From Nitrosopumilus maritimus SCM1 (GTDB lineage: Archaea > Thermoproteota > Nitrososphaeria > Nitrososphaerales > Nitrosopumilaceae): a stretch of DNA of 32,000 nucleotides. The stretch is taken from NCBI RefSeq assembly GCF_000018465.1, contig NC_010085.1, positions 840,001 through 872,000 on the forward strand, in the 5' to 3' direction. The notes under the pieces were generated by a model, which ran no database searches, had not been told where the DNA came from, and saw only the letters and a list, made by a program, of their open reading frames with translations. Of the stretch, positions 3,027 to 17,327 are shown in pieces. The translations under genes were made by a program, and so were the position numbers. The first letter of the stretch is position 1; the number at the start of each line of letters is the position of its first letter.

Positions 3027-4268
3027 TTACCAGCTGTTTGCGTATTTTACTTGCTCTGGAGTAAGTTTGTCAATCTTTACATCCATTGCCTTTAGTGCAT
3101 CAACTGCAACTTGAGTATCAATCTCTTCAGGTACATTGATGATTTTGTTTTCCATCTTTTTGTGGTTCTTGAGAATATACATGACAGATAGTATTTGATT
3201 TGAAAATGATTGAGCCATTACTTCTGGGGGGTGACCTTCTGCTGCAACCAAGTTTGCAAGACGTCCTTGACCAATTAGATAGACCTTCTTTCCATTTTTG
3301 AGTACACATTCATCAAGTGCAGGTCTTACTTCTTTGACTGATTTTGATTTCTTTAGCAAAAATTCACTGTCAATTTCAACATCAAAGTGACCAACATTTC
3401 CCATGATTGCACCGTCTTTCATCTTTAGAATGTGTTCTTTTCTAATTACACTAGTCATTCCAGTACAAGTGATAAAGATGTCACCTAGCTTTGTTGCTTG
3501 TGCCATTGGCATTACTTCAAAGCCATCCATGTGAGCTTCAAGAGCTTTTACAGGATCAATTTCAGTTACAATTACTTTGGAACCCATTCCATGGCATCTT
3601 GCTGCAACACCACGTCCAACCCAACCATAACCTACAACTACAACACGTTTTGATGCCATAAGCAAATTCATTGCACGAAGATATCCATCTATTGTGCTTT
3701 GACCAGTACCGTATCTGTTATCAAACATGTGTTTTGTATATGCTTCATTTACCAAGATTACAGGATATCGTAATTTTCCCTGATTCTCAACTGCTCTAAT
3801 TCTAGTTACACCGGCTGTTGTCTCTTCAGTGGCACCCAAAATTTTCATGTTCTTGAATCGCTTATCAAAGTGAGCTTTGACATTCATGTCTGCACCATCA
3901 TCAGTGAGAATTGTTGGTTTGTGTTTTAGGACTTGATCAATACACCAATCATATTCTTTTACAGATTGGCCATGCCATGCATAAACATGAATTCCTTGTG
4001 ATGCCAAAAATGCTGCAATGTTATCTTGGGTAGTTAATGGATTTCCACCACAACATGCGACAGTTGCTCCAAGTTCTTTTGCACCCATTAGCAAGACAGA
4101 TGTCTCTTTTGTAATATGGAGACAGAATCCAAGGGTAACTCCTTTGAGAGGTTTTGATTTTTTTAATCGATTAATGGTATTATCTAAAATTTGCATATGA
4201 GATCTTGCCCATTCATAGGACAGTTTTCCTTCTTTGATCAGTTTTGCACTAGACTTTACTTTGCTCAC
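3027..4268 (-). CDS. ahcY: S-adenosyl-L-homocysteine hydrolase
   Basis: 413 aa, GTG start. NAD Rossmann segment VVVVGYGWVGRG and typical AHCY blocks (TTQDNIAAFLA, DDGADM, GRLANL). Confidence 0.95.
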   Translation of the reverse strand: MSKVKSSAKLIKEGKLSYEWARSHMQILDNTINRLKKSKPLKGVTLGFCLHITKETSVLLMGAKELGATVACCGGNPLTTQDNIAAFLASQGIHVYAWHGQSVKEYDWCIDQVLKHKPTILTDDGADMNVKAHFDKRFKNMKILGATEETTAGVTRIRAVENQGKLRYPVILVNEAYTKHMFDNRYGTGQSTIDGYLRAMNLLMASKRVVVVGYGWVGRGVAARCHGMGSKVIVTEIDPVKALEAHMDGFEVMPMAQATKLGDIFITCTGMTSVIRKEHILKMKDGAIMGNVGHFDVEIDSEFLLKKSKSVKEVRPALDECVLKNGKKVYLIGQGRLANLVAAEGHPPEVMAQSFSNQILSVMYILKNHKKMENKIINVPEEIDTQVAVDALKAMDVKIDKLTPEQVKYANSW

Positions 4269-5488: not shown

Positions 5489-6873
5489 AACTACAAGACA
5501 CATTATCAAATGCTGAGCAAGAATTAGACACATCAAAAAAAGTCAAAATTTACCTTTGCGGAGTAACAGTATATGATGAATCCCATATTGGTCATGCAAG
5601 AACAATCATAGTCTTTGATGTACTACGAAGATACCTAGAAGACAAGGGAATAGAGATAGAATTTATTCAAAATTTTACTGATGTAGATGACAAGATAATC
5701 AATAGAGCACAAGCAGAAAACACCAGTGCTGAAGCAATTAGTACAAAATACATTGAAAATTATTTCAAAGATTTTGATGGGCTAAATGTCAAACATGCTA
5801 CAAACTATCCAAAGGCAACAGAGCACATAGAAGATATCATCAAATTCATTGAAAAATTAATTGAGAAAGAGATTGCATATGTCTCAAAGAATGGTGTGTA
5901 CTTTGCAGTCTCAAAATTTCCAGAATATGGAAAGTTATCAAAAAAGAAGATTGATGAATTAGAATCAGGAGCAAGAATCGAAGTTGATGAGGCAAAAAAT
6001 AATCCGCTAGACTTTGCAGTATGGAAATTTTCAGATGTTGAACCTTTATGGGACAGCCCATGGGGAAAGGGAAGACCGGGATGGCACATTGAATGTTCTG
6101 CAATGAGTACAAAGTATCTTGGAGAGAATTTTGACATTCATGGGGGAGGAAGAGATTTGATATTTCCCCATCATGAAAACGAGATTGCCCAATCTGAATC
6201 ATTTACAGGTAATCAATTTGCAAAAATCTGGATGCATGTAGGAATGGTTACGATTGATGGAGAGAAAATGTCAAAGTCAATTGGAAACATAAAATCAATC
6301 AAACATGTTTTAGAGAATTGGGGGCCAAACATCATCAGATTGTTTTGCTTGTCTGGACACTATTCAAAACCAATTGATTATTCTGAAGAACTACTAAAGG
6401 AAAACCTAACTAAATGGAGACAAGCTGAAACTTGCTACTATGAGTTGATTCACGCAAATAGTGAAAATAGTGAGAAGGTAGGCTCTATAGTTGAAAAACT
6501 AGGCTCGGAATTTGATAAAGCATTAGAAGATGATGTAAACACTCACCTGGCATTATCTGCATTTTTCCAACTAGTCAAAGAAGCAAACAGATTGGCTGCT
6601 GAAGAAAAGTTGGGAAAAGAAGATGCCAAAATTATCAAAACAGAATTTCTAAGAATGTTAAAAATTTTAGGACTAAATATTCCAGAGATGACTGAAGGAA
6701 TGAAACAAGAAATCGACACAATGATTGAGAATAGAGAAAAATTCAGACAAGAAAAACAATTCCAAGAAGCAGATCAGATTCGAGATAAGCTCAATGAGAT
6801 GAATATCGAGTTGATTGATCATAAAGGAAAAACAATCTGGATGAAAAAAGAAAACATCAAAGCTGAAAAATAA
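5485..6873 (+). CDS. cysS: cysteinyl-tRNA synthetase
   Basis: 462 aa. HIGH (SHIGHARTI), exact KMSKS, and the WHIECS zinc-site block. Confidence 0.95.
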   Translation: MKLQDTLSNAEQELDTSKKVKIYLCGVTVYDESHIGHARTIIVFDVLRRYLEDKGIEIEFIQNFTDVDDKIINRAQAENTSAEAISTKYIENYFKDFDGLNVKHATNYPKATEHIEDIIKFIEKLIEKEIAYVSKNGVYFAVSKFPEYGKLSKKKIDELESGARIEVDEAKNNPLDFAVWKFSDVEPLWDSPWGKGRPGWHIECSAMSTKYLGENFDIHGGGRDLIFPHHENEIAQSESFTGNQFAKIWMHVGMVTIDGEKMSKSIGNIKSIKHVLENWGPNIIRLFCLSGHYSKPIDYSEELLKENLTKWRQAETCYYELIHANSENSEKVGSIVEKLGSEFDKALEDDVNTHLALSAFFQLVKEANRLAAEEKLGKEDAKIIKTEFLRMLKILGLNIPEMTEGMKQEIDTMIENREKFRQEKQFQEADQIRDKLNEMNIELIDHKGKTIWMKKENIKAEK

Positions 6874-6885
6874 AAAAGAAAAGAA

Positions 6886-7200
6886 TTAAGGGTTAACCAT
6901 TGTTAATTTTGCCTCAATTCTGTCATAGTATCCATTTTGGTCCATAGCAGGAACATAAAATGTTGCAGAAACTACATCTCCAACACCTGCACCACAATCT
7001 GCTACAACAACAGAGTGACCTAAAACAGACTCACCAACACAGCCATAATCAGTAACAGCAATGACCGATACATCTTCAGTAACTAGTGTTGGAACTATAT
7101 TCCAAGGAGTTAATGTGAAAACTAGTATTACTGAAGTTGCTGCAGCCAAAATTACCATGAACTTTAGCCGAGGTGTTTTTGTTTGTGTGGTTTGTTGCAT
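6886..7200 (-). CDS. small secreted or membrane-anchored protein, unknown function
   Basis: 104 aa with an N-terminal hydrophobic helix (LKFMVILAAATSVILVFTL). TATA-like TTATATTTT about 30 nt upstream, and a TTGGCACTAG box further upstream. Confidence 0.5.
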   Translation of the reverse strand: MQQTTQTKTPRLKFMVILAAATSVILVFTLTPWNIVPTLVTEDVSVIAVTDYGCVGESVLGHSVVVADCGAGVGDVVSATFYVPAMDQNGYYDRIEAKLTMVNP

Positions 7201-7256
7201 TTCTCCTCAATAGAAATTACATTTTACAAAATATAACCAAGAGGAAACTTTTTGCT

Positions 7257-7266
7257 CTAGTGCCAA
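7257..7266 (-). promoter_or_regulatory. near-consensus TTGGCACTAG box upstream of gene 6886..7200
   Basis: 9/10 match. About 20 nt upstream of TTATATTTT, which lies about 30 nt before the ATG at 7200. Confidence 0.35.
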
Positions 7267-7270
7267 TTAT

Positions 7271-7600
7271 TCAAATTTTACAATCACAACCTTTCTTTTT
7301 TAAAATTTGAATTTGTCTTGATGGAGAGTCAACAAAAGTATCCTGTTTAGAATTACCAGTTGCTTTTCTCTTATCCAGTGGGCTCTGGTGAGAATACCCC
7401 CTACGAGTCATCTCAGAAACCAATTCTTCATGCCTAGAATAGAGAGCTTTTAGTTTTCCTTTCCAACGTACAGTCTCAGGATGCAAGGAATATCCCTTCT
7501 TACCCTCAGTGATTACTGCCCACATGGCATGAAGTTCCCTATGTTCACCTAGCAAATGGTTTCTGCATAATTTCTTTGGAGGGATATCCCAGATTCTCAT
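7271..7600 (-). CDS. pyrimidine-dimer DNA glycosylase family protein (T4 endonuclease V-like, Pyr_excise)
   Basis: 109 aa. The N-terminus MRIWDIPPKKLCRNHLLGEHRELHAMW, the KGYSLHPE block and the RRGY block resemble the short bacterial/archaeal Pyr_excise family and T4 DenV (HLMAEYRELPRV). Recalled from memory, not searched. Confidence 0.6.
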   Translation of the reverse strand: MRIWDIPPKKLCRNHLLGEHRELHAMWAVITEGKKGYSLHPETVRWKGKLKALYSRHEELVSEMTRRGYSHQSPLDKRKATGNSKQDTFVDSPSRQIQILKKKGCDCKI

Positions 7601-7705
7601 TTTCTTTTTTCTCCAAACAATTCTAAATCAGTTAAAGATAAAACCAAAAATCTTTGCATAAAGAAAAAAAGATTTTTCAATATTTAAAAAAAATAAAATT
7701 TTGAA

Positions 7706-7716
7706 CTAGTGCTAAA
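7706..7716 (-). promoter_or_regulatory. single TTTAGCACTAG box in the A-tract-rich spacer upstream of the endoV-like gene
   Basis: The plus strand reads CTAGTGCTAAA. Read on the minus strand, AAAATTTTATTTTTTTTAAATAT follows. The ATG of 7271..7600 is about 105 nt further on, so the target assignment is uncertain. Confidence 0.4.
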
Positions 7717-7834
7717 AAAAATAAAAAAAGCTTTAGCTAATTTTAAAAAAAATACGCACAAAAAAATTAGTTTAGTCTAATTAGGATCATCTAATTTTCA
7801 CGGGGTTTAATAGAATTGAAAACTAAATCAATCT

Positions 7835-8116
7835 ATGAATGCATGGAATAAATTTTGGAAATGGTATGAAAATAAAATACTTGGAAGTATAATTGTAATT
7901 GCAGTTATTCAATTTATTCAAGTTCCTCACATGGTATGGAATGCAGACCTAATGTTAGAAGCAGGGCTTGTTTCAAGAGTCCATCCAGTAATTGATTGGT
8001 TCTTGTATGGAGTAGACTTGATCGAGATTGTTTCAATTGTTAATGTTGGAATGATCATGTACAGCCTTCTCAAGAAAAGACAATCACAAAAAAGACTTGC
8101 TGCAAAAGCAGCATAA
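7835..8116 (+). CDS. small integral membrane protein, unknown function
   Basis: 93 aa with 2-3 hydrophobic helices and a basic tail. TTTAATAGAA box about 25 nt upstream of the ATG. Confidence 0.5.
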   Translation: MNAWNKFWKWYENKILGSIIVIAVIQFIQVPHMVWNADLMLEAGLVSRVHPVIDWFLYGVDLIEIVSIVNVGMIMYSLLKKRQSQKRLAAKAA

Positions 8117-9753: not shown

Positions 9754-10653
9754 TTACTCCAAGTTTAGAGGAATACTTGCACTACCAAAGTCTTCTGCGA
9801 TTCTAAAGACATAATCTTTTGAAGAATCATATTCAAATTCGGTTCCACCATATCCAATATTTGGACCAAAGAGTATGTTAAACTCTCTTGCATCACCTGG
9901 ATTTAGCACAATTTGTCCACTGGTAAAGTCCATGCCAGAGTACTTGTAGGCCTTTGAGCCATCCCATACATCATATGCACATATTTGAGGACTAGTACAA
10001 TTTAGAGCGGCAATTTCAGAACTGGTGTTCTCAGCAAGCATTCTAACAGACAATAGAGGTTGTCCTGTAGCAGTAATCTCAAACTCATTTCCTTCAGAAC
10101 CGACTCCAGTCCAATAATATGTGATTGGTCCCAAGTCGAATTTTTGAGCTCCAGATTTGTATTCATGTACTTTGATTGCTTGTTTGAGTGGTTTTTCACA
10201 ATCTAGTCTTTTGTAGGCTTTGGTAATTTCAGAACATTGTTCAAGTTCAGCTTCTAATGATGCTAATTTTGAATCAGTGTTTTTTGGTTCATCAGACATT
10301 ATTGGTTGTTCTGATGTTAATGAAACAGAAAGTAATCCAAATTGAATCAAATGCTGTACACCGTTAACAAATTCACCATCAGAGATTGTTCCATCTGCCC
10401 ACCATCCTGCATTGTTCTTAACCCAAGCTGGGACACTATCGGCAGTTTCAGAAGATACAGTAGTGGTAGGAACTGTAATTATTCCATCAGAAATCAAAAA
10501 AGCAATTCCTGTGAGAAATTCAGATTCAGATATGACTCCTTCTGCCCACCATCCTGCATTGTTCTTAACCCAGCCTGGTACTTCAGCATATGCAGAAGAT
10601 ACAGTTGTTGCAACCAGTAAAATTGCAGCGATTGCAGTTATTGCGGTTTTCAT
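9754..10653 (-). CDS. secreted protein with two WW repeat modules (VPxWVKNNAGWWAxGxISxxEF...) and a Cys-containing C-terminal domain
   Basis: 299 aa. Signal peptide MKTAITAIAAILLVATTVSSAYA. Internal 49-aa (147-nt) duplication. Tandem TTTAGCACTAG boxes plus a TATA box lie directly upstream. Confidence 0.75.
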   Translation of the reverse strand: MKTAITAIAAILLVATTVSSAYAEVPGWVKNNAGWWAEGVISESEFLTGIAFLISDGIITVPTTTVSSETADSVPAWVKNNAGWWADGTISDGEFVNGVQHLIQFGLLSVSLTSEQPIMSDEPKNTDSKLASLEAELEQCSEITKAYKRLDCEKPLKQAIKVHEYKSGAQKFDLGPITYYWTGVGSEGNEFEITATGQPLLSVRMLAENTSSEIAALNCTSPQICAYDVWDGSKAYKYSGMDFTSGQIVLNPGDAREFNILFGPNIGYGGTEFEYDSSKDYVFRIAEDFGSASIPLNLE

Positions 10654-10674: not shown

Positions 10675-10713
10675 GTATATAAGCTAGTGCTAAAGAATTT
10701 GACTAGTGCTAAA
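10675..10713 (-). promoter_or_regulatory. tandem 11-bp boxes (19-bp period) abutting the TATA box of gene 9754..10653
   Basis: Minus-strand reading: TTTAGCACTAG (10713-10703), 8 nt, TTTAGCACTAG (10694-10684), C, TTATATAC (10682-10675). ATG at 10653. Confidence 0.7.
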
Positions 10714-10737
10714 TTTTTGAATTAACAGCCACTGAAA

Positions 10738-10748
10738 CTAGTGGTAAT
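10738..10748 (-). promoter_or_regulatory. third, degenerate box ATTACCACTAG between the divergent 9754..10653 and DUF1722 promoters
   Basis: The plus strand reads CTAGTGGTAAT. It lies 24 nt upstream of the tandem pair and about 20 nt from the DUF1722 TATA box (10769-10776). Confidence 0.5.
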
Positions 10749-12579: not shown

Positions 12580-13506
12580 ATGACAGTAAATAGAATAGTC
12601 TCATTCTTACCTAGTGCAACAGAATTACTATACGAGTTTGGAGTTCAAAACAAAGTATACGGAGTCACACATGAATGCAAGTACCCTAGTGAGGCAATTT
12701 CTAAACCACAGGTAATTAGTTCAGTAATAGACTCTGAGAAATTATCAAGTAATGAAATCAATACACAAACATGTCAACTACTCAATGAAGGAAAAGATAT
12801 TTTCATTTTAAATGAAAAAAATCTAAAAGATGCCAATCCAGATCTTATAATTTCTCAAGAAACATGTGAGGTATGTGCAGCATATACTAATCAAGTAAAC
12901 AAAGCACTCCAAATTCTTGAGAGAAAACCAATAATTCATTCAATGGATCCTCACAACATATCAGAAATCATAGAGTCAGTTATCAAATTAGGAAAAATTT
13001 TAGAAGAAGAAAGTAAAGCAAAAGAGATTTCAGAGTCATTAGAAAAAAGAATTCAAAAAATAAAAAATAAAGTTCATACCAACATACCAAAAATTCTAGC
13101 AATCGAATGGATAGAGCCATTTTTTACAGCTGGTCATTGGGTTCCAGAAATGATAGAAATTGCTGGTGGAAAAAACACGATAAGCAAAACAGGAGAACAT
13201 TCAAGACGTATGGACTTTGAAGAAATATCAAATTCTGATGCAGACATTATAATTCTCATGCCATGTGGATTTGACACAAAACGTACAGTTTCAGAATACA
13301 AAGACATTCTAGAAAGAGATGAGAAATGGAACATGCTCAAGGCAGTGCAAAATCAGGCAGTTTTTGCAGTGGATGCCAATTCTTTTTTCAGCAAGCCCAG
13401 CATCAGAACAGTTGAGGGAATAGAGATACTTGCAAAAATAATCCATCCAGAAACATTTGATGATGTTAATGTTTCAGAAAATTCTTTTGCAAATGTTTAC
13501 CAATAA
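12580..13506 (+). CDS. BtuF-like (Peripla_BP_2) cobalamin/iron-chelate binding protein lacking a signal peptide
   Basis: 308 aa. It starts directly with the mature-domain pattern RIVSFLPSATELLYEFG...VYGVTHEC, followed by DLIISQ and FFTAGHWVPEMIEIAGG blocks typical of class III binding proteins. No hydrophobic leader and no adjacent permease or ATPase. Confidence 0.7.
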   Translation: MTVNRIVSFLPSATELLYEFGVQNKVYGVTHECKYPSEAISKPQVISSVIDSEKLSSNEINTQTCQLLNEGKDIFILNEKNLKDANPDLIISQETCEVCAAYTNQVNKALQILERKPIIHSMDPHNISEIIESVIKLGKILEEESKAKEISESLEKRIQKIKNKVHTNIPKILAIEWIEPFFTAGHWVPEMIEIAGGKNTISKTGEHSRRMDFEEISNSDADIIILMPCGFDTKRTVSEYKDILERDEKWNMLKAVQNQAVFAVDANSFFSKPSIRTVEGIEILAKIIHPETFDDVNVSENSFANVYQ

Positions 13507-13512
13507 ATTTCA

Positions 13513-14892
13513 TCATAGGGGTTTACCCTTGTACTGATAATCAATTACTTTGTGGAACAAGTTATGAGATGCAATAACAGTTAATGCAACTATGAATATT
13601 CCAATAAAATTCCTTATTGTCATTAATTCATTTGGAGTAGTTGCTATCAATGAATTTTCAAAAATAACATAGTAATTGTCAAACAACCAGAACACCAAAG
13701 TAATCCAGGATAATACACCTGCTATCAAATAACCTAAACGGGTTTTGTTGTGAATTAGTATTATTGCAAATCCAATAGCAATATACCAAAAGGCAGAACC
13801 AATTAACCACATAGGTTCATAGACATCAGTTCTATCATCTAGCCAATAATAACTTGAACCAATAATAGCTAATGCAAATAGAGAAACTTGAATTAATTTT
13901 TGATTGATTTTAAACCCTGTTTTCTCCTCTTTTTGTTCCATTTGCGGAGGATCAGATTTCATTTCTTTTGTTGCGATATCAATTGCTTCACGAACGGATT
14001 TTAGATGCATAGGAATGATTTTTGTTATAGAATCGTCGGCGACAACAGTATCATGAACCAAGCTATCAATCAGAGGCCTTGCAAGTGATGCCTTTACAGG
14101 AGTGATAAGATCAACCCAATACGAAGATAGTCTAGTGGTTAGAAATGGGATTTGAATGACAAACAGATTTTTGTTCAGATATGCTGAATACACACGCATT
14201 AATTCCTCATAAGTCATTTTATCAGGACCTCCAATCTCAAAAATTTTACCCATTGTTTCAGGTTTTGATAGAGATTCAGCAAGATAACTAATCACATCAT
14301 CAACTGCAATTGGTTGGGCCAATGACTTGACCCACGAAGGACATACCATCACACTCAATCTTTCAACAAGATAACGAAGCATAGCATAAGAACCACTTTT
14401 TGCACCAATAATTATAGAAGCTCTAAATTCTGTAACAGGAATATTTCCAGATGCAAGAATTTCCCCTACTTCTTTCCTACTACGCATATGAGGTGAGAGA
14501 CCAAGACTATCATTAACTAAACCACCAAGGTAAATAATTCGTTTTACACCAGATTCTGTGGCAGCTTTGAGAAAGTTTTGAGCTTGATTATTTTCTCGTG
14601 TAGCAAATTCTTGCCAATCACCTTTATCACCTTCCATAGAGTGAAGTAAATAATATGCAGTATCAATACCAAACATTGCATTTTTTAATTCATCAAAGTT
14701 GAATGCATCTGCTTTAACATATTTTACTTTATCATTACCAGATAATTGTTTTCTACTCAGACCCTTTACAGTGTAACCTGAAGAAACAAGAGATGAAATT
14801 AATCTTGAGCCAATAAATCCCGTTGCACCAGTAACCAAGATTGAAAATGGTTTGTAATCAGAAGATTTAGATGATGAAATCACTTGTTTCAT
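13513..14892 (-). CDS. NAD(P)-binding NmrA/atypical-SDR-like domain fused to a C-terminal four-helix membrane domain
   Basis: 459 aa. Rossmann motif ILVTGATGFIGSRL. The C-terminal ~130 aa contain four hydrophobic helices. Tandem box pair plus TATA directly upstream. Confidence 0.75.
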   Translation of the reverse strand: MKQVISSSKSSDYKPFSILVTGATGFIGSRLISSLVSSGYTVKGLSRKQLSGNDKVKYVKADAFNFDELKNAMFGIDTAYYLLHSMEGDKGDWQEFATRENNQAQNFLKAATESGVKRIIYLGGLVNDSLGLSPHMRSRKEVGEILASGNIPVTEFRASIIIGAKSGSYAMLRYLVERLSVMVCPSWVKSLAQPIAVDDVISYLAESLSKPETMGKIFEIGGPDKMTYEELMRVYSAYLNKNLFVIQIPFLTTRLSSYWVDLITPVKASLARPLIDSLVHDTVVADDSITKIIPMHLKSVREAIDIATKEMKSDPPQMEQKEEKTGFKINQKLIQVSLFALAIIGSSYYWLDDRTDVYEPMWLIGSAFWYIAIGFAIILIHNKTRLGYLIAGVLSWITLVFWLFDNYYVIFENSLIATTPNELMTIRNFIGIFIVALTVIASHNLFHKVIDYQYKGKPL

Positions 14893-14944
14893 TTTTTATG
14901 GCACCTACGAAATATTTTACACATGGTGGGTTTTTCTTTTCAAA

Positions 14945-14983
14945 TTATTTAAACTAGTGATAATCAATTTAACTAGTGGTAAA
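14945..14983 (-). promoter_or_regulatory. tandem 11-bp boxes (19-bp period) abutting the TATA box of gene 13513..14892
   Basis: Minus-strand reading: TTTACCACTAG (14983-14973), 8 nt, ATTATCACTAG (14964-14954), then immediately TTTAAATAA (14953-14945). Confidence 0.65.
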
Positions 14984-15044: not shown

Positions 15045-15082
15045 TTTAGCACTAGAAAAAGAGGTTAGCATTAGTTATATAA
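15045..15082 (+). promoter_or_regulatory. tandem 11-bp boxes (19-bp period) abutting the TATA box of the B12-binding protein gene
   Basis: TTTAGCACTAG (15045-15055), 8 nt, GTTAGCATTAG (15064-15074), then immediately TTATATAA (15075-15082). ATG at 15102, a spacing consistent with a leaderless mRNA. Confidence 0.7.
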
Positions 15083-15101: not shown

Positions 15102-15944
15102 ATGGTCTACATACGAGCAAAAAAGGTAAAATCAGACCAATATCTGTATCTAGTCAAAAGTGTATGGGACTCAAAAAAGAGCACATCAAAACAAGAAATT
15201 GTCAAATATCTTGGAAAGGCATCGGAAGTTGTAAAAGATGACATTCCAATAGATTATAGAAATGATCCCAAAGTATTATCAGTTTTAGCATCTTACAATC
15301 CAAAAGATATCAAGAAAAGAGAAGACGCAACAAAGAAATCAAAACAACAACTATACAAGAAACTAACTGAAGGGAGTATTCAAGATTGTGTAAAAATTTA
15401 TGAAGAATATATTAAAATTTTTAATGCATCCGATTTCTTTGATAGAATTCTAAAACCCACAATGTATAGAATTGGTGATGAATGGTCCATAGGTAAAATC
15501 AGCATAGCCACAGAACATGTTGCAAGCAATGTTGCTCAAACACTTGTAAAAATAATAATGGACCAAGTATCATCTGGTGGAAATAAAAAGAAAATTCTCA
15601 TATGTGTTCCATTAGGAGAAGAACATCATTTAGGATGCGATGTATTAGAAACATATCTATCAATTAAAGGATTCAAAATTTTTAATATGGGAACATCAAT
15701 GCCAACAGAATCAATTCTTAGTTTCATTGACAACAATAAACCAGATGTTGTGTTGGTATCAATCACATTAGAAGACAACCTAGCAGCAGGGCAGAGATTA
15801 GTCAAAAAAATAAGTGACCATACAAACATTCCCATACTAGTTGGTGGCTATGCACTTCAAGCAAAGAAAATTCCCAAATTTACAGGCCAGATAATTCCAG
15901 ATTGCGGTCTTGAGGAAGTTCCTAAAATTTTAAGAAAGATTTAA
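15102..15944 (+). CDS. CarH/LitR-like coenzyme-B12-binding photoreceptor-type protein with a non-MerR basic N-terminal domain (candidate transcription regulator)
   Basis: 280 aa. W128-x9-E138-H139 (GDEWSIGKISIATEHVAS), then E173-x-H175-x-x-G178, x41, S220-I-T222, x25, G248-G249. The N-terminal 45 aa are basic (MVYIRAKKVKSDQYLYLVKSVW...KYLGK). TATA TTATATAA starts 27 nt before the ATG. Confidence 0.8.
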   Translation: MVYIRAKKVKSDQYLYLVKSVWDSKKSTSKQEIVKYLGKASEVVKDDIPIDYRNDPKVLSVLASYNPKDIKKREDATKKSKQQLYKKLTEGSIQDCVKIYEEYIKIFNASDFFDRILKPTMYRIGDEWSIGKISIATEHVASNVAQTLVKIIMDQVSSGGNKKKILICVPLGEEHHLGCDVLETYLSIKGFKIFNMGTSMPTESILSFIDNNKPDVVLVSITLEDNLAAGQRLVKKISDHTNIPILVGGYALQAKKIPKFTGQIIPDCGLEEVPKILRKI

Positions 15945-16003
15945 GTTTATTTTAAAACTGCATAGTGGTAAATTAAATCAACTTTTATTAAAATTAGTCA
16001 TAA

Positions 16004-16014
16004 ATTAGCACTAG
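16004..16014 (+). promoter_or_regulatory. single ATTAGCACTAG box upstream of an AT-rich box, in the spacer before the TFB cassette
   Basis: Exact TTAGCACTAG 10-mer, followed by TTATTAAAATAAA about 15 nt downstream. Confidence 0.5.
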
Positions 16015-16203
16015 AATCCAATTTTTTTGTTATTAAAATAAAACAAAAACAAAAGAAAAGTAGAGTATAAAATGGAATCAACATATGCAGTAATTGCAGA
16101 TACAAAAAAAGAATTACTCAAAATGATATCTAAAAAAGAATGTGAACAAACGTTTGCTCTAATTGTAACCACATCGTGATATTATTTACAATAAAAGAAT
16201 AAA

Positions 16204-16214
16204 ATTAGCACTAG
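16204..16214 (+). promoter_or_regulatory. single ATTAGCACTAG box upstream of the zinc-ribbon mini-ORF/TFB operon
   Basis: Exact 10-mer, exactly 200 bp after the copy at 16004. Followed by AAAAAATATTTT and CTTAAATAAT boxes, with the ATG at 16262. Confidence 0.55.
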
Positions 16215-16261
16215 AAAAAATATTTTCTTTCTCTTAAATAATTTCAAAACAAAATTAATTC

Positions 16262-16414
16262 ATGAAACAAGAATTGATTCAGGAAAATAAAAATGAATTA
16301 AAAATCAAAAATAAGAATGTAAAAATTTGTATCAATTGTGGAAATTCAAAAGTTGATTCACATGAATATGGAATTTCATGTGAAGATTGTGGTATTCTTT
16401 TGTGGAGAGAATAA
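16262..16414 (+). CDS. stand-alone zinc-ribbon mini-protein (50 aa), TFB-ribbon-like
   Basis: Own translation: MKQELIQENKNELKIKNKNVKICINCGNSKVDSHEYGISCEDCGILLWRE, with CxxC-x13-CxxC. The stop lies 1 nt before the TFB ATG at 16416. CTTAAATAAT box about 25 nt upstream. Below the ORF-track length cutoff. Confidence 0.45.
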   Translation: MKQELIQENKNELKIKNKNVKICINCGNSKVDSHEYGISCEDCGILLWRE

Positions 16415-16415
16415 A

Positions 16416-17327
16416 ATGATTACAGAACTTGTACATCAAAAGAGTTGTAAAAAAAACAAGATTGTAACTGATCTGAATACAGGAGAGATTGCATGCACGA
16501 ATTGCGGTGCAGTACTCTCTGAAAGAGTAGTTGACAGTGGTCCAGAAAGTCTAGGGATGACTGGAGAAGAATATCAAACCAACAGTAGAGTTGGAAGAAA
16601 AATTTCATTAAAAATGATAGACATGGGATTATCAACCATTATTGAGGCTAAAGACAAAGATGCAACAGGAAAAGGGCTATCAAATGAGAACAAGAGAATG
16701 TTTTATCGCCTAAGAATGTGGGATAGAAATAGTCGTTCTGCAAGTACCGCCAAATCATTTCAAAAGGCATTCACCATGCTTGATGGAATCAGTGCTAAAC
16801 TAGGACTTCCAGAGCCAGTAATAGAACAAACTGCATATCTATTTAGAAAAATTGCTGCAAAAAAGATTCTTGCAGGAAGATCTACAGCAGGGATTCTTTG
16901 TGCAGCAATTTACATCACATGCAGAATGACAAATACACCAAGAACTTTACAAGATGTGGCAAATGCTGGAAATGTAAATAAAAAAAACATTCAAAGAACA
17001 TACAGATTTCTTGCAAGAGAATTAGACATTACACCAGAAATTTATCATCCAACAGAATTTGTAACACGAATTGCAAAGGCAGTAGACATCTCTGAGAAAA
17101 CAGAAAGATTGGCATTTAGAATTTTAGATCTTTCTGCAAGAAACGGAGTATTAGAAAGTAAAAATCCAATGGCAATGGCTGCTGCTGCAACATATCTCGC
17201 ATCAGTAAAAAACGATGAAAGAATTTCTCAGTTAAAAATTTCCAAAGTCTCTGGCATTAGTGCAGTTACAATCAGAGATAGAACAAAAGAAATTTTGAAA
17301 AAGATAGGAGGTGAAATTAATGGGTAG
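16416..17327 (+). CDS. tfb: transcription initiation factor B paralog with a degenerate N-terminal zinc ribbon
   Basis: Two cyclin-like repeats (RSTAGILCAAIYITCR, NPMAMAAAATYLA). The ribbon reads SCKKNK...CTNCG, so the first knuckle is CxxN rather than CxxC. GPESL replaces the usual GPEWR. I prefer ATG 16416 to the track start 16338, which overlaps the mini-ORF in another frame. Confidence 0.9.
   Translation: MITELVHQKSCKKNKIVTDLNTGEIACTNCGAVLSERVVDSGPESLGMTGEEYQTNSRVGRKISLKMIDMGLSTIIEAKDKDATGKGLSNENKRMFYRLRMWDRNSRSASTAKSFQKAFTMLDGISAKLGLPEPVIEQTAYLFRKIAAKKILAGRSTAGILCAAIYITCRMTNTPRTLQDVANAGNVNKKNIQRTYRFLARELDITPEIYHPTEFVTRIAKAVDISEKTERLAFRILDLSARNGVLESKNPMAMAAAATYLASVKNDERISQLKISKVSGISAVTIRDRTKEILKKIGGEING
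17307..17313 (+). promoter_or_regulatory. Shine-Dalgarno-like GGAGGTG, 6 nt upstream of ATG 17320
   Basis: GGAGGTG lies inside the 3' end of the TFB gene. This suggests coupled translation of the downstream Cys-rich ORF. Confidence 0.5.

Follow-up and report, generated by a model that had tools for sequence, protein, structure and literature searches.

CarH homologues are defined by a Wx9EH element together with the cobalamin motif D/ExHxxG/P-x41-SxT/V-x22-27-GG (PMC9304148; PMC8156234), and the operators of CarH are tandem direct repeats that overlap the promoter (PMC8156234). Four elements, GxxW, EH, GxxH and GxxxP, make up an experimentally validated light-response signature of cobalamin domains, and the SignatureFinder survey, which lists HTH, DGC, BBD, GAF and MEDS as outputs, does not mention archaea (PMC11796333). 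Here, we analyzed the gene of a B12 protein located at positions 15102 to 15944 (forward strand) of a 32-kb stretch of Nitrosopumilus maritimus SCM1 DNA (contig NC_010085.1, positions 840,001 to 872,000), hereafter the window; coordinates refer to the window unless a locus of another genome is named. We propose that its 280-aa product is probably an archaeal functional analogue of CarH that controls a light/UV regulon through a new DNA-binding head.

Marine ammonia-oxidizing archaea, which are photoinhibited, account for a large part of the nitrification in the ocean and rank among the major producers of cobalamin; to our knowledge, no mechanism of light perception has been established for them. 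The literature that could be searched contains no paper on CarH together with Nitrosopumilus, CarH and Thaumarchaeota are joined in one general B12 review only, and the gene Nmar_0978 (a locus tag deduced from the accession numbering) is not mentioned. The cobalamin module belongs to a type already described. In that literature, we found no description of the beta-sheet head, the archaeal setting of the promoter, the operator or the predicted regulon.

Assignment of the cobalamin domain

The gene is present in the list of open reading frames (ORFs) with the coordinates and protein sequence given in the earlier note on this DNA, and the product is identical to the N. maritimus SCM1 protein ABX12874.1 (WP_012215361.1; UniProt A9A3E2). 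The Pfam search proposed in that note matched B12-binding_2 (PF02607; residues 82 to 152, 1e-10) and B12-binding (PF02310; residues 165 to 251, 2e-11), both above their gathering cut-offs, and no MerR, HTH or other DNA-binding family was found in the same scan of the 280-aa protein. The family carries conflicting database names ("response regulator receiver," "histidine kinase," "methionine synthase protein" and "methanogenic corrinoid protein MtbC1"), and a few JGI records label its members "MerR family light-induced regulator." An Rfam scan of the window returned no RNA family, cobalamin riboswitch included.

All residue numbers that had been reported for the two cobalamin motifs were confirmed by regular expressions on the translation. 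The four-helix-bundle cap spans residues 82 to 154 (15345 to 15563, forward strand, as are the following elements), corresponds to Pfam B12-binding_2, aligns without gaps with the GEAW...EEH region of Thermus CarH (TtCarH) and harbors W128-x9-E138-H139, with G125xxW128 at 15474 to 15485 and E138H139 at 15513 to 15518. The Rossmann B12-binding domain follows at residues 162 to 253 (15585 to 15860), with G172xxH175, G197xxxP201, S220xT222 and G248G249; H175, the predicted lower axial ligand, is encoded at 15624 to 15626. The pattern [DE]xHxx[GP]-x41-Sx[TVL]-x22-28-GG has a single full match, at residues 173 to 249, as E173xH175xxG178-x41-S220xT222-x25-G248G249. Thus, G125xxW128, E138H139, G172xxH175 and G197xxxP201 together provide all four elements of the light-response signature. 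All 120 close homologues examined had GxxWx9EH and the full B12 motif, and GxxWx9EH was retained by 50 of 55 diverse full-length relatives with the same N-terminus and identities down to 23%. In a diverse alignment of 44 relatives reaching the same identity, the signature columns were at least 90% conserved. Since GxxWx9EH is strictly conserved across the family, a chance coincidence is unlikely. Four full-length members (P0144, P0166, P0239 and P0273) have the N-terminal module and the Rossmann domain and lack W and/or EH, being reminiscent of CarA, the B12-independent offshoot of CarH.

Next, the domain was placed among the known cobalamin families. The best NCBIfam match was TransRegCarH (6e-16, 58.5 bits, residues 78 to 257 only), ahead of MetH (1e-10, 39.7 bits versus a cut-off of 1011, confined to the B12 module) and of the corrinoid proteins MtaC/MtbC/MtmC/MtgC (2e-10 or weaker, 26 to 40 bits versus cut-offs of 215 to 450); all of these scores remain under their cut-offs because the cobalamin half alone matches. 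A single-sequence phmmer search of the Protein Data Bank (PDB) was ambiguous, with Thermus MetH first (3e-12) and CarH at about 5e-9. The PDB was also searched with a family profile built from 44 members with identities down to 23%, and the best matches were CtMerR (8JBS, 2e-26) and the photocobilins (8J2X/W, 9e-26; 8J2Y, 1e-21), followed by TtCarH (5e-20). MetH (9e-20) was level with TtCarH, its E-value exceeding those of the top photoreceptor matches by six orders of magnitude, and AerR (7TE2) reached 1e-15.

The predicted fold pointed in the same direction. The AlphaFold2 model of the full protein had a mean predicted local distance difference test (pLDDT) of 90.6, and all 50 top Foldseek matches in the PDB were structures of B12 photoreceptors. 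In the comparison with TtCarH that had been suggested earlier, the cobalamin domain gave target-normalized template modeling (TM) scores of 0.85 to 0.87 and root mean square deviations of 2.6 to 2.8 Å. Pairwise BLASTP against the same domain gave 21% identity (E = 9e-17) with a single one-residue gap, and W, EH, H and GxxxP aligned with their TtCarH counterparts, W128/E138/H139 corresponding to W131/E141/H142. Overall, by sequence, profile and predicted fold, the cobalamin domain groups with domains whose light response is experimental knowledge (CtMerR, the photocobilins and TtCarH). The claim that the module is of the CarH type and not of the MtaC/MetH type is therefore borne out by NCBIfam, family profile and fold alike, and the corrinoid proteins, with which homology or structure might have placed the protein, score lower.

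Promoter repeats and the N-terminal module

The window contains six exact copies of TTAGCACTAG, against 0.07 expected from base composition. With up to two mismatches, 54 copies were counted versus 21±4 in shuffled sequences, and none of 100 shuffles reached 54. All six exact copies are intergenic; among the 12 copies with at most one mismatch, which all lie between 4.2 and 16.3 kb, solely the one at 4243 falls inside a listed ORF. The promoter of the B12 gene (15046 to 15082, forward strand) is formed by a distal TTAGCACTAG (15046 to 15055), a proximal TTAGCATTAG (15065 to 15074) and the TATA box TTATATAA (15075 to 15082), so that the site starts precede the ATG by 56 and 37 nt (the 57/38-nt geometry referred to below), with the proximal copy directly against the TATA box. 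The tandem repeat beside the TATA box described in the earlier note was therefore recovered, and it proved strongly nonrandom and conserved across species.

The same layout of site, 9 nt, site and TATA is common to this promoter and two others. One is the divergent promoter of a gene for an SDR/NmrA-like NAD(P)-binding protein with a C-terminal membrane domain, hereafter the SDR-membrane gene (14945 to 14982, reverse strand; TTACCACTAG at 14973 to 14982 and TTATCACTAG at 14954 to 14963, then TTTAAATAA). The other is the promoter of a 298-aa signal-peptide protein (10684 to 10747, reverse strand), in which the copies at 10703 and 10684 are followed by TTATATA and a third copy lies at 10738. Single distal copies, 17 to 20 nt upstream of a TATA-like box, precede four more units. 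These are a pyrimidine-dimer DNA glycosylase gene, with the near-palindromic site TTTGAACTAGTGCTAA upstream (7700 to 7715, reverse strand); a 104-aa ORF, with TTGGCACTAG (7257 to 7266, reverse strand) located 20 nt upstream of TTATATTT; a 35-codon ORF (16073 to 16180), with an exact copy at 16005 to 16014 (forward strand); and a 50-aa Zn-ribbon ORF followed by a TFB paralogue, with an exact copy at 16205 to 16214 (forward strand), 57 nt upstream of the 50-aa ORF.

We considered that the proximal repeat might be a plain TFB-recognition element (BRE) for the neighboring TFB. This was rejected, since the single-site promoters keep the distal copy only, 19 to 20 nt upstream of TATA, and the motif is therefore not a BRE read by TFB. 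The exact copy at 16005 heads a 53-nt direct repeat (16002 to 16054 and 16202 to 16254, 72% identity), both copies of which start with AAATTAGCACTAGAA, which looks like the duplication of a promoter cassette. In addition, TTTGAACTAGTGCTAA (7700 to 7715) and TTTGCTCTAGTGCCAA (7251 to 7266) are near-palindromes about a central CTAG and in this differ from the direct-repeat sites at other positions.

To follow the motif beyond this genome, loci were scanned in one genome per GTDB species, which returned 65 loci, all from Nitrosopumilaceae. At least one motif copy was found within 260 nt upstream of the B12 gene in all 65, nearly always at -57 and/or -38 from the ATG. A spacing of 18 or 19 bp between same-strand neighboring copies, seen in 96 pairs, was far more frequent than any other. 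The phyletic survey proposed earlier thus found both the gene and the motif throughout these loci. Genes following a motif copy were then clustered into families across loci. The 57/38-nt geometry recurred before six gene families other than the B12 protein. It was observed before the B12 protein in 55 loci, a secreted protein in 32, a 448-aa amine-oxidase/CrtI-superfamily flavoprotein in 32, a 119-aa protein in 26, a TFB paralogue in 24 (with the motif 57 nt before the ATG of TFB itself) and a small Zn-ribbon protein in 14, as well as before the SDR-membrane protein and, occasionally, Pyr_excise and a PNPOx-like protein. Because the distance between motif and ATG is constant, the transcripts should be leaderless or have short leaders, and the motif should hold a fixed place with respect to TATA. 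Two contigs of MAG_349_bin-01 (L012 and L045) each have one copy of the gene, with 80% and 77% identity to the query, which could be either a paralogue pair or a mixed bin.

The motif also accompanies more distant orthologues. An orthologue with 41% identity (locus L080) has the same two-plus-two divergent arrangement, and in one with 34% identity (L081), TTGGCACTAG precedes the ATG by about 60 nt. Orthologues of about 25% identity were found on contigs of roughly 70% GC, one of them named Candidatus Thermoplasmatota in NCBI. Upstream of these genes are CCTAGTGCCCA and CCTGGTGCCCA, 21 bp apart, in locus L070, CCTAGTGCCCA in L072 and CCAAGTGCCCA in L077; CTAGTGC, the reverse complement of the GCACTAG core, occurs nowhere else in 10.4 kb and 7 kb of high-GC loci. 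The orthologue in L072 comes after a PAS histidine kinase and a response regulator. The ammonia-oxidizer setting described in the earlier note holds insofar as the Nitrosopumilaceae are concerned; a restriction to ammonia oxidizers does not, given the Thermoplasmatota orthologues. The strongest argument that the protein may read the motif, correlative as it is, comes from the persistence of the motif core with the gene in different phyla and at different base compositions.

The proposed DNA-binding head is the N-terminal module (residues 1 to 50; 15102 to 15251, forward strand), which AlphaFold2 predicts as three long antiparallel strands (residues 2 to 9, 12 to 23 and 28 to 39) with a pLDDT of 94 when modeled alone and about 90 in the full model. 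The claim that the N-terminus is not MerR is borne out by both this fold and the Pfam scan. The 45-aa basic segment of the earlier note is indeed basic, with 11 K+R versus 4 D+E, but instead of a mere segment it appears to be a folded, conserved three-stranded beta module, in which R5, K7, Y14, Y16, Q31, Y36 and G38 were invariant over 46 diverse copies. An exhaustive HMMER search of residues 1 to 80 against 1.84 billion representatives yielded 122 clusters, and most full-length matches were proteins of 280 to 316 aa with the same cobalamin half. The module was also found fused to an HNH endonuclease (P0211; Pfam HNH, 6e-11), with a Zn ribbon (P0214), as a stand-alone tandem pair (P0224) and joined to a domain of about 130 aa of no known family, in a family of 172- to 181-aa proteins. 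The P0211 genes lie at 4001 to 4531 in L067 and L069 and at 2942 to 3472 in L068, on contigs with many small unannotated ORFs and a protein of about 1,000 aa, which probably derive from a virus or mobile element.

The module had no match in Pfam or NCBIfam, its profile gave noise only against the PDB sequences, and Foldseek of the 50-aa model found nothing significant in the PDB (best PC4, E = 0.9) or BFVD (viral resolvase, E = 0.09). The tandem-module protein P0224 bears a precomputed PF20586 label, which hmmscan did not confirm. A possible likeness to integrase Arm/AP2-type or IS1634 N-termini was dropped, its sole trace being Arm-DNA-bind_4 in one distant protein (E = 0.12). The charge of the module, its fusion partners, its location where CarH has the MerR head and the operator data suggest that it binds DNA.

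Candidate targets, proposed regulation and alternatives

The genes next to the motif copies suggest a small regulon. The fit to autoregulation that the earlier note had seen agrees with the position of the repeat in the gene's own promoter, but the role of the motif seems not to be limited to autoregulation. The SDR-membrane gene (13513 to 14892, reverse strand) is the divergent neighbor of the B12 gene in 45 of 63 loci. It is preceded by an 11-codon upstream ORF (MCKIFRRCHKK; 14889 to 14924, reverse strand), whose TGA stop overlaps the SDR-membrane ATG (ATGA) and whose start follows the beginnings of the two motif copies by 39 and 58 nt, as in the usual geometry, suggesting that it is leaderless and translationally coupled to the SDR-membrane gene. 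An in-frame upstream start for the SDR-membrane gene was rejected, since that start is out of frame and belongs to the 11-codon ORF. Further on the reverse strand are the gene for the 298-aa signal-peptide protein (9754 to 10653) downstream of the three-copy promoter, the pyrimidine-dimer DNA glycosylase gene (7271 to 7600; Pyr_excise, 1e-26) and the 104-aa ORF (6886 to 7200).

On the forward strand, the 50-aa ORF with a TFIIB-like Zn ribbon (CINCG...CEDCG; 16262 to 16414) lies between its motif promoter and the TFB paralogue (about 16416 to 17327), which directly follows it and has a Zn ribbon of its own. The 50-aa ORF was found by tblastn in four close loci only, and 14 loci have a member of a related family of small Zn-ribbon proteins behind the motif; the TFB paralogue is downstream of the B12 gene in 44 of 63 loci. 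In most relatives, a CrtI-like gene and two small genes, which are absent from the window, separate the B12 and TFB genes. In L021, for instance, proteins of 448 aa (amine-oxidase/CrtI superfamily), 148 aa and 122 aa are encoded at 5844 to 8060 (reverse strand), with the motif before the first and the last. A Peripla_BP_2 (BtuF/IsdE-like) binding protein is encoded at 12580 to 13506 (forward strand), beside an Nre gene and two genes upstream of the B12 gene, and it co-occurs with the B12 gene in 23 of 63 loci. Its N-terminus, MTVNRIVSFLPSATELL, shows no obvious signal peptide, and the gene possibly serves cobalamin handling. Taken together, the UV-dimer glycosylase, CrtI-superfamily oxidase, SDR, PNPOx-like protein and alternative TFB look like a light/UV stress response, and the presence of an alternative TFB among the targets suggests a second regulatory tier acting through it.

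By analogy with CarH, the C-terminal domain would bind adenosylcobalamin (AdoCbl) base-off/His-on via H175, under the W128/E138/H139 cap, with AdoCbl as the light-labile chromophore. In the dark, the AdoCbl-loaded protein would oligomerize and its heads would occupy the TTAGCACTAG direct repeats 18 to 19 bp apart, the bound proximal copy at the BRE, abutting TATA, controlling recruitment of TBP and TFB. As in the CarH model, light would cleave the Co-C bond, the oligomer would disassemble and the protein would leave the DNA (PMC8156234). The promoters would then change state, most likely by derepression, at the predicted targets: the gene itself, the divergent SDR-membrane protein, the secreted protein, the pyrimidine-dimer glycosylase, the TFB paralogue and, in most relatives, the CrtI-superfamily flavin oxidase. 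A proximal copy in the BRE position fits repression, and distal-only sites upstream of the BRE, which in archaea often mean activation, would fit the opposite sign of regulation. We infer that sign, as well as AdoCbl binding, photolysis, oligomer switching and binding of the motif by the B12 protein. The wider proposal, of an archaea-specific family of B12 photoreceptor transcription factors in Nitrosopumilaceae, related ammonia oxidizers and Thermoplasmatota, whose novel beta head would read (T)TAGCACTAG direct repeats at BRE/TATA and switch on a photoprotection regulon (UV-dimer repair, CrtI-like oxidase, SDR and alternative TFB), is one that we regard as evenly balanced.

Several observations weigh against these proposals. 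The TransRegCarH score of 58.5 bits is far below the equivalog cut-off of 400 bits. W128 is followed by Ser, and the position is His in only 9 of 50 relatives; in the light state of TtCarH, the His after the Trp turns into the upper ligand. No known DNA-binding domain matches the N-terminal fold significantly, in structure or in sequence, and the protein is linked to the motif by co-occurrence and autoregulatory position only. The motif is absent from two of the five high-GC loci. The single-site promoters hold the distal copy only, upstream of the BRE, and archaeal sites upstream of the BRE are more typical of activators. Lastly, a methylmalonyl-CoA mutase large-subunit gene (3423 to 5090 of L070, forward strand) lies near the Thermoplasmatota-like orthologue, with one opposite-strand gene between.

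Part of these observations would fit other explanations. The protein could be an AerR-like, light- or B12-dependent co-regulator that does not bind DNA and whose beta module docks on a partner, such as the syntenic TFB paralogue, with the partner or an unrelated regulator binding TTAGCACTAG. We consider this unlikely, though the best of the alternatives. The unmatched fold of the module and the frequency of the downstream TFB paralogue agree with it, as does the precedent of AerR, a cobalamin-domain protein that acts via a partner and matches the family profile. Nevertheless, HNH nuclease and Zn-ribbon fusions and a stand-alone tandem pair are typical of nucleic-acid-binding modules, the motif core accompanies the gene in another phylum, in which the neighboring genes seen did not include TFB, and the single-site motif is no BRE read by TFB.

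It is a little less probable still that the protein senses cobalamin status and tunes B12-dependent metabolism or B12 handling, its light sensitivity being incidental. The mutase gene in L070 would fit such a sensor, the BtuF-like gene upstream in the window and elsewhere speaks for it, and ammonia-oxidizing archaea depend on AdoCbl enzymes. However, the window scan found no motif copy upstream of the BtuF-like gene, and the motif-bearing set (pyrimidine-dimer glycosylase, CrtI-superfamily oxidase, SDR and TFB) resembles photoprotection and not B12 metabolism. Moreover, the Wx9EH cap is reported to separate light-responsive from other cobalamin domains (PMC9304148, PMC11796333). The least likely rival, and a very improbable one, is a methyl-transfer corrinoid protein (MtaC/MtbC-like) or MetH-derived B12 domain with a coincidental Wx9EH, as the names "methanogenic corrinoid protein MtbC1" and "methionine synthase protein" and the first phmmer match would have it, but the element is conserved family-wide, MetH carries F/V/L at the positions of W/E/H and is a multidomain protein of about 1,200 aa with Hcy, folate and AdoMet domains versus 280 aa here, no methyltransferase partner gene is found among the neighbors in the window, the NCBIfam scores lie far under their cut-offs and below that of CarH, and photoreceptors rank first by profile and fold.

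If the proposed CarH-like regulator is real, it would be the first light-sensing gene switch in ammonia-oxidizing archaea, possibly with a two-tier cascade in which light acts through the TFB paralogue. Its head would add a small fold to those known to bind DNA, B12 photobiology would reach into archaeal transcription, and optogenetics would gain a compact switch for green light whose DNA head is orthogonal. The locus provides a testable hypothesis in cultured N. maritimus SCM1: it names a candidate sensor, a putative operator of 10 bp, a constant promoter geometry and a few target genes.

Comparison with known systems

The B12 protein shares with CarH/LitR (TtCarH 5C8D/5C8E; Myxococcus, Bacillus) the arrangement of an N-terminal DNA head and a C-terminal AdoCbl domain (here both predicted), in which a Wx9EH four-helix bundle lies over a Rossmann domain with ExHxxG-x41-SxT-x25-GG. 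The tandem TTAGCACTAG repeats, which abut TATA and are conserved in 65 loci, would be a counterpart of the CarH operators if the protein binds them, and in both systems the gene is beside putative photoprotection genes. In contrast, CarH/LitR proteins have a MerR winged helix where a three-stranded beta module is predicted here, and they act at sigma-70 promoters instead of an archaeal TATA/BRE promoter. Their repeats are contiguous 11-bp units, whereas ours is a 10-mer at 18- to 19-bp spacing, and their His after the Trp is Ser in this protein, which has 21% identity and falls far below the equivalog cut-off.

The cobalamin domain of CtMerR (8JBS) and the photocobilins SasPcob/AbDPcob (8J2W/X/Y) are the best profile and fold matches and share GxxW, EH, GxxH and GxxxP, which were experimentally shown to accompany the green-light response; however, they are all bacterial, have no beta module, and their outputs are MerR HTH, a biliverdin-binding domain or diguanylate cyclase. 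AerR (7TE2), a cobalamin-binding regulator, likewise lacks a classical DNA-binding domain, but it is an antirepressor of CrtJ, matches more weakly (1e-15) and has no N-terminal module. Finally, the MetH module and MtaC/MtbC/MtmC have the same cap-plus-Rossmann fold and the same His-on motif, but they lack Wx9EH, use methylcobalamin, work with methyltransferase partners and match more weakly by both profile and fold.

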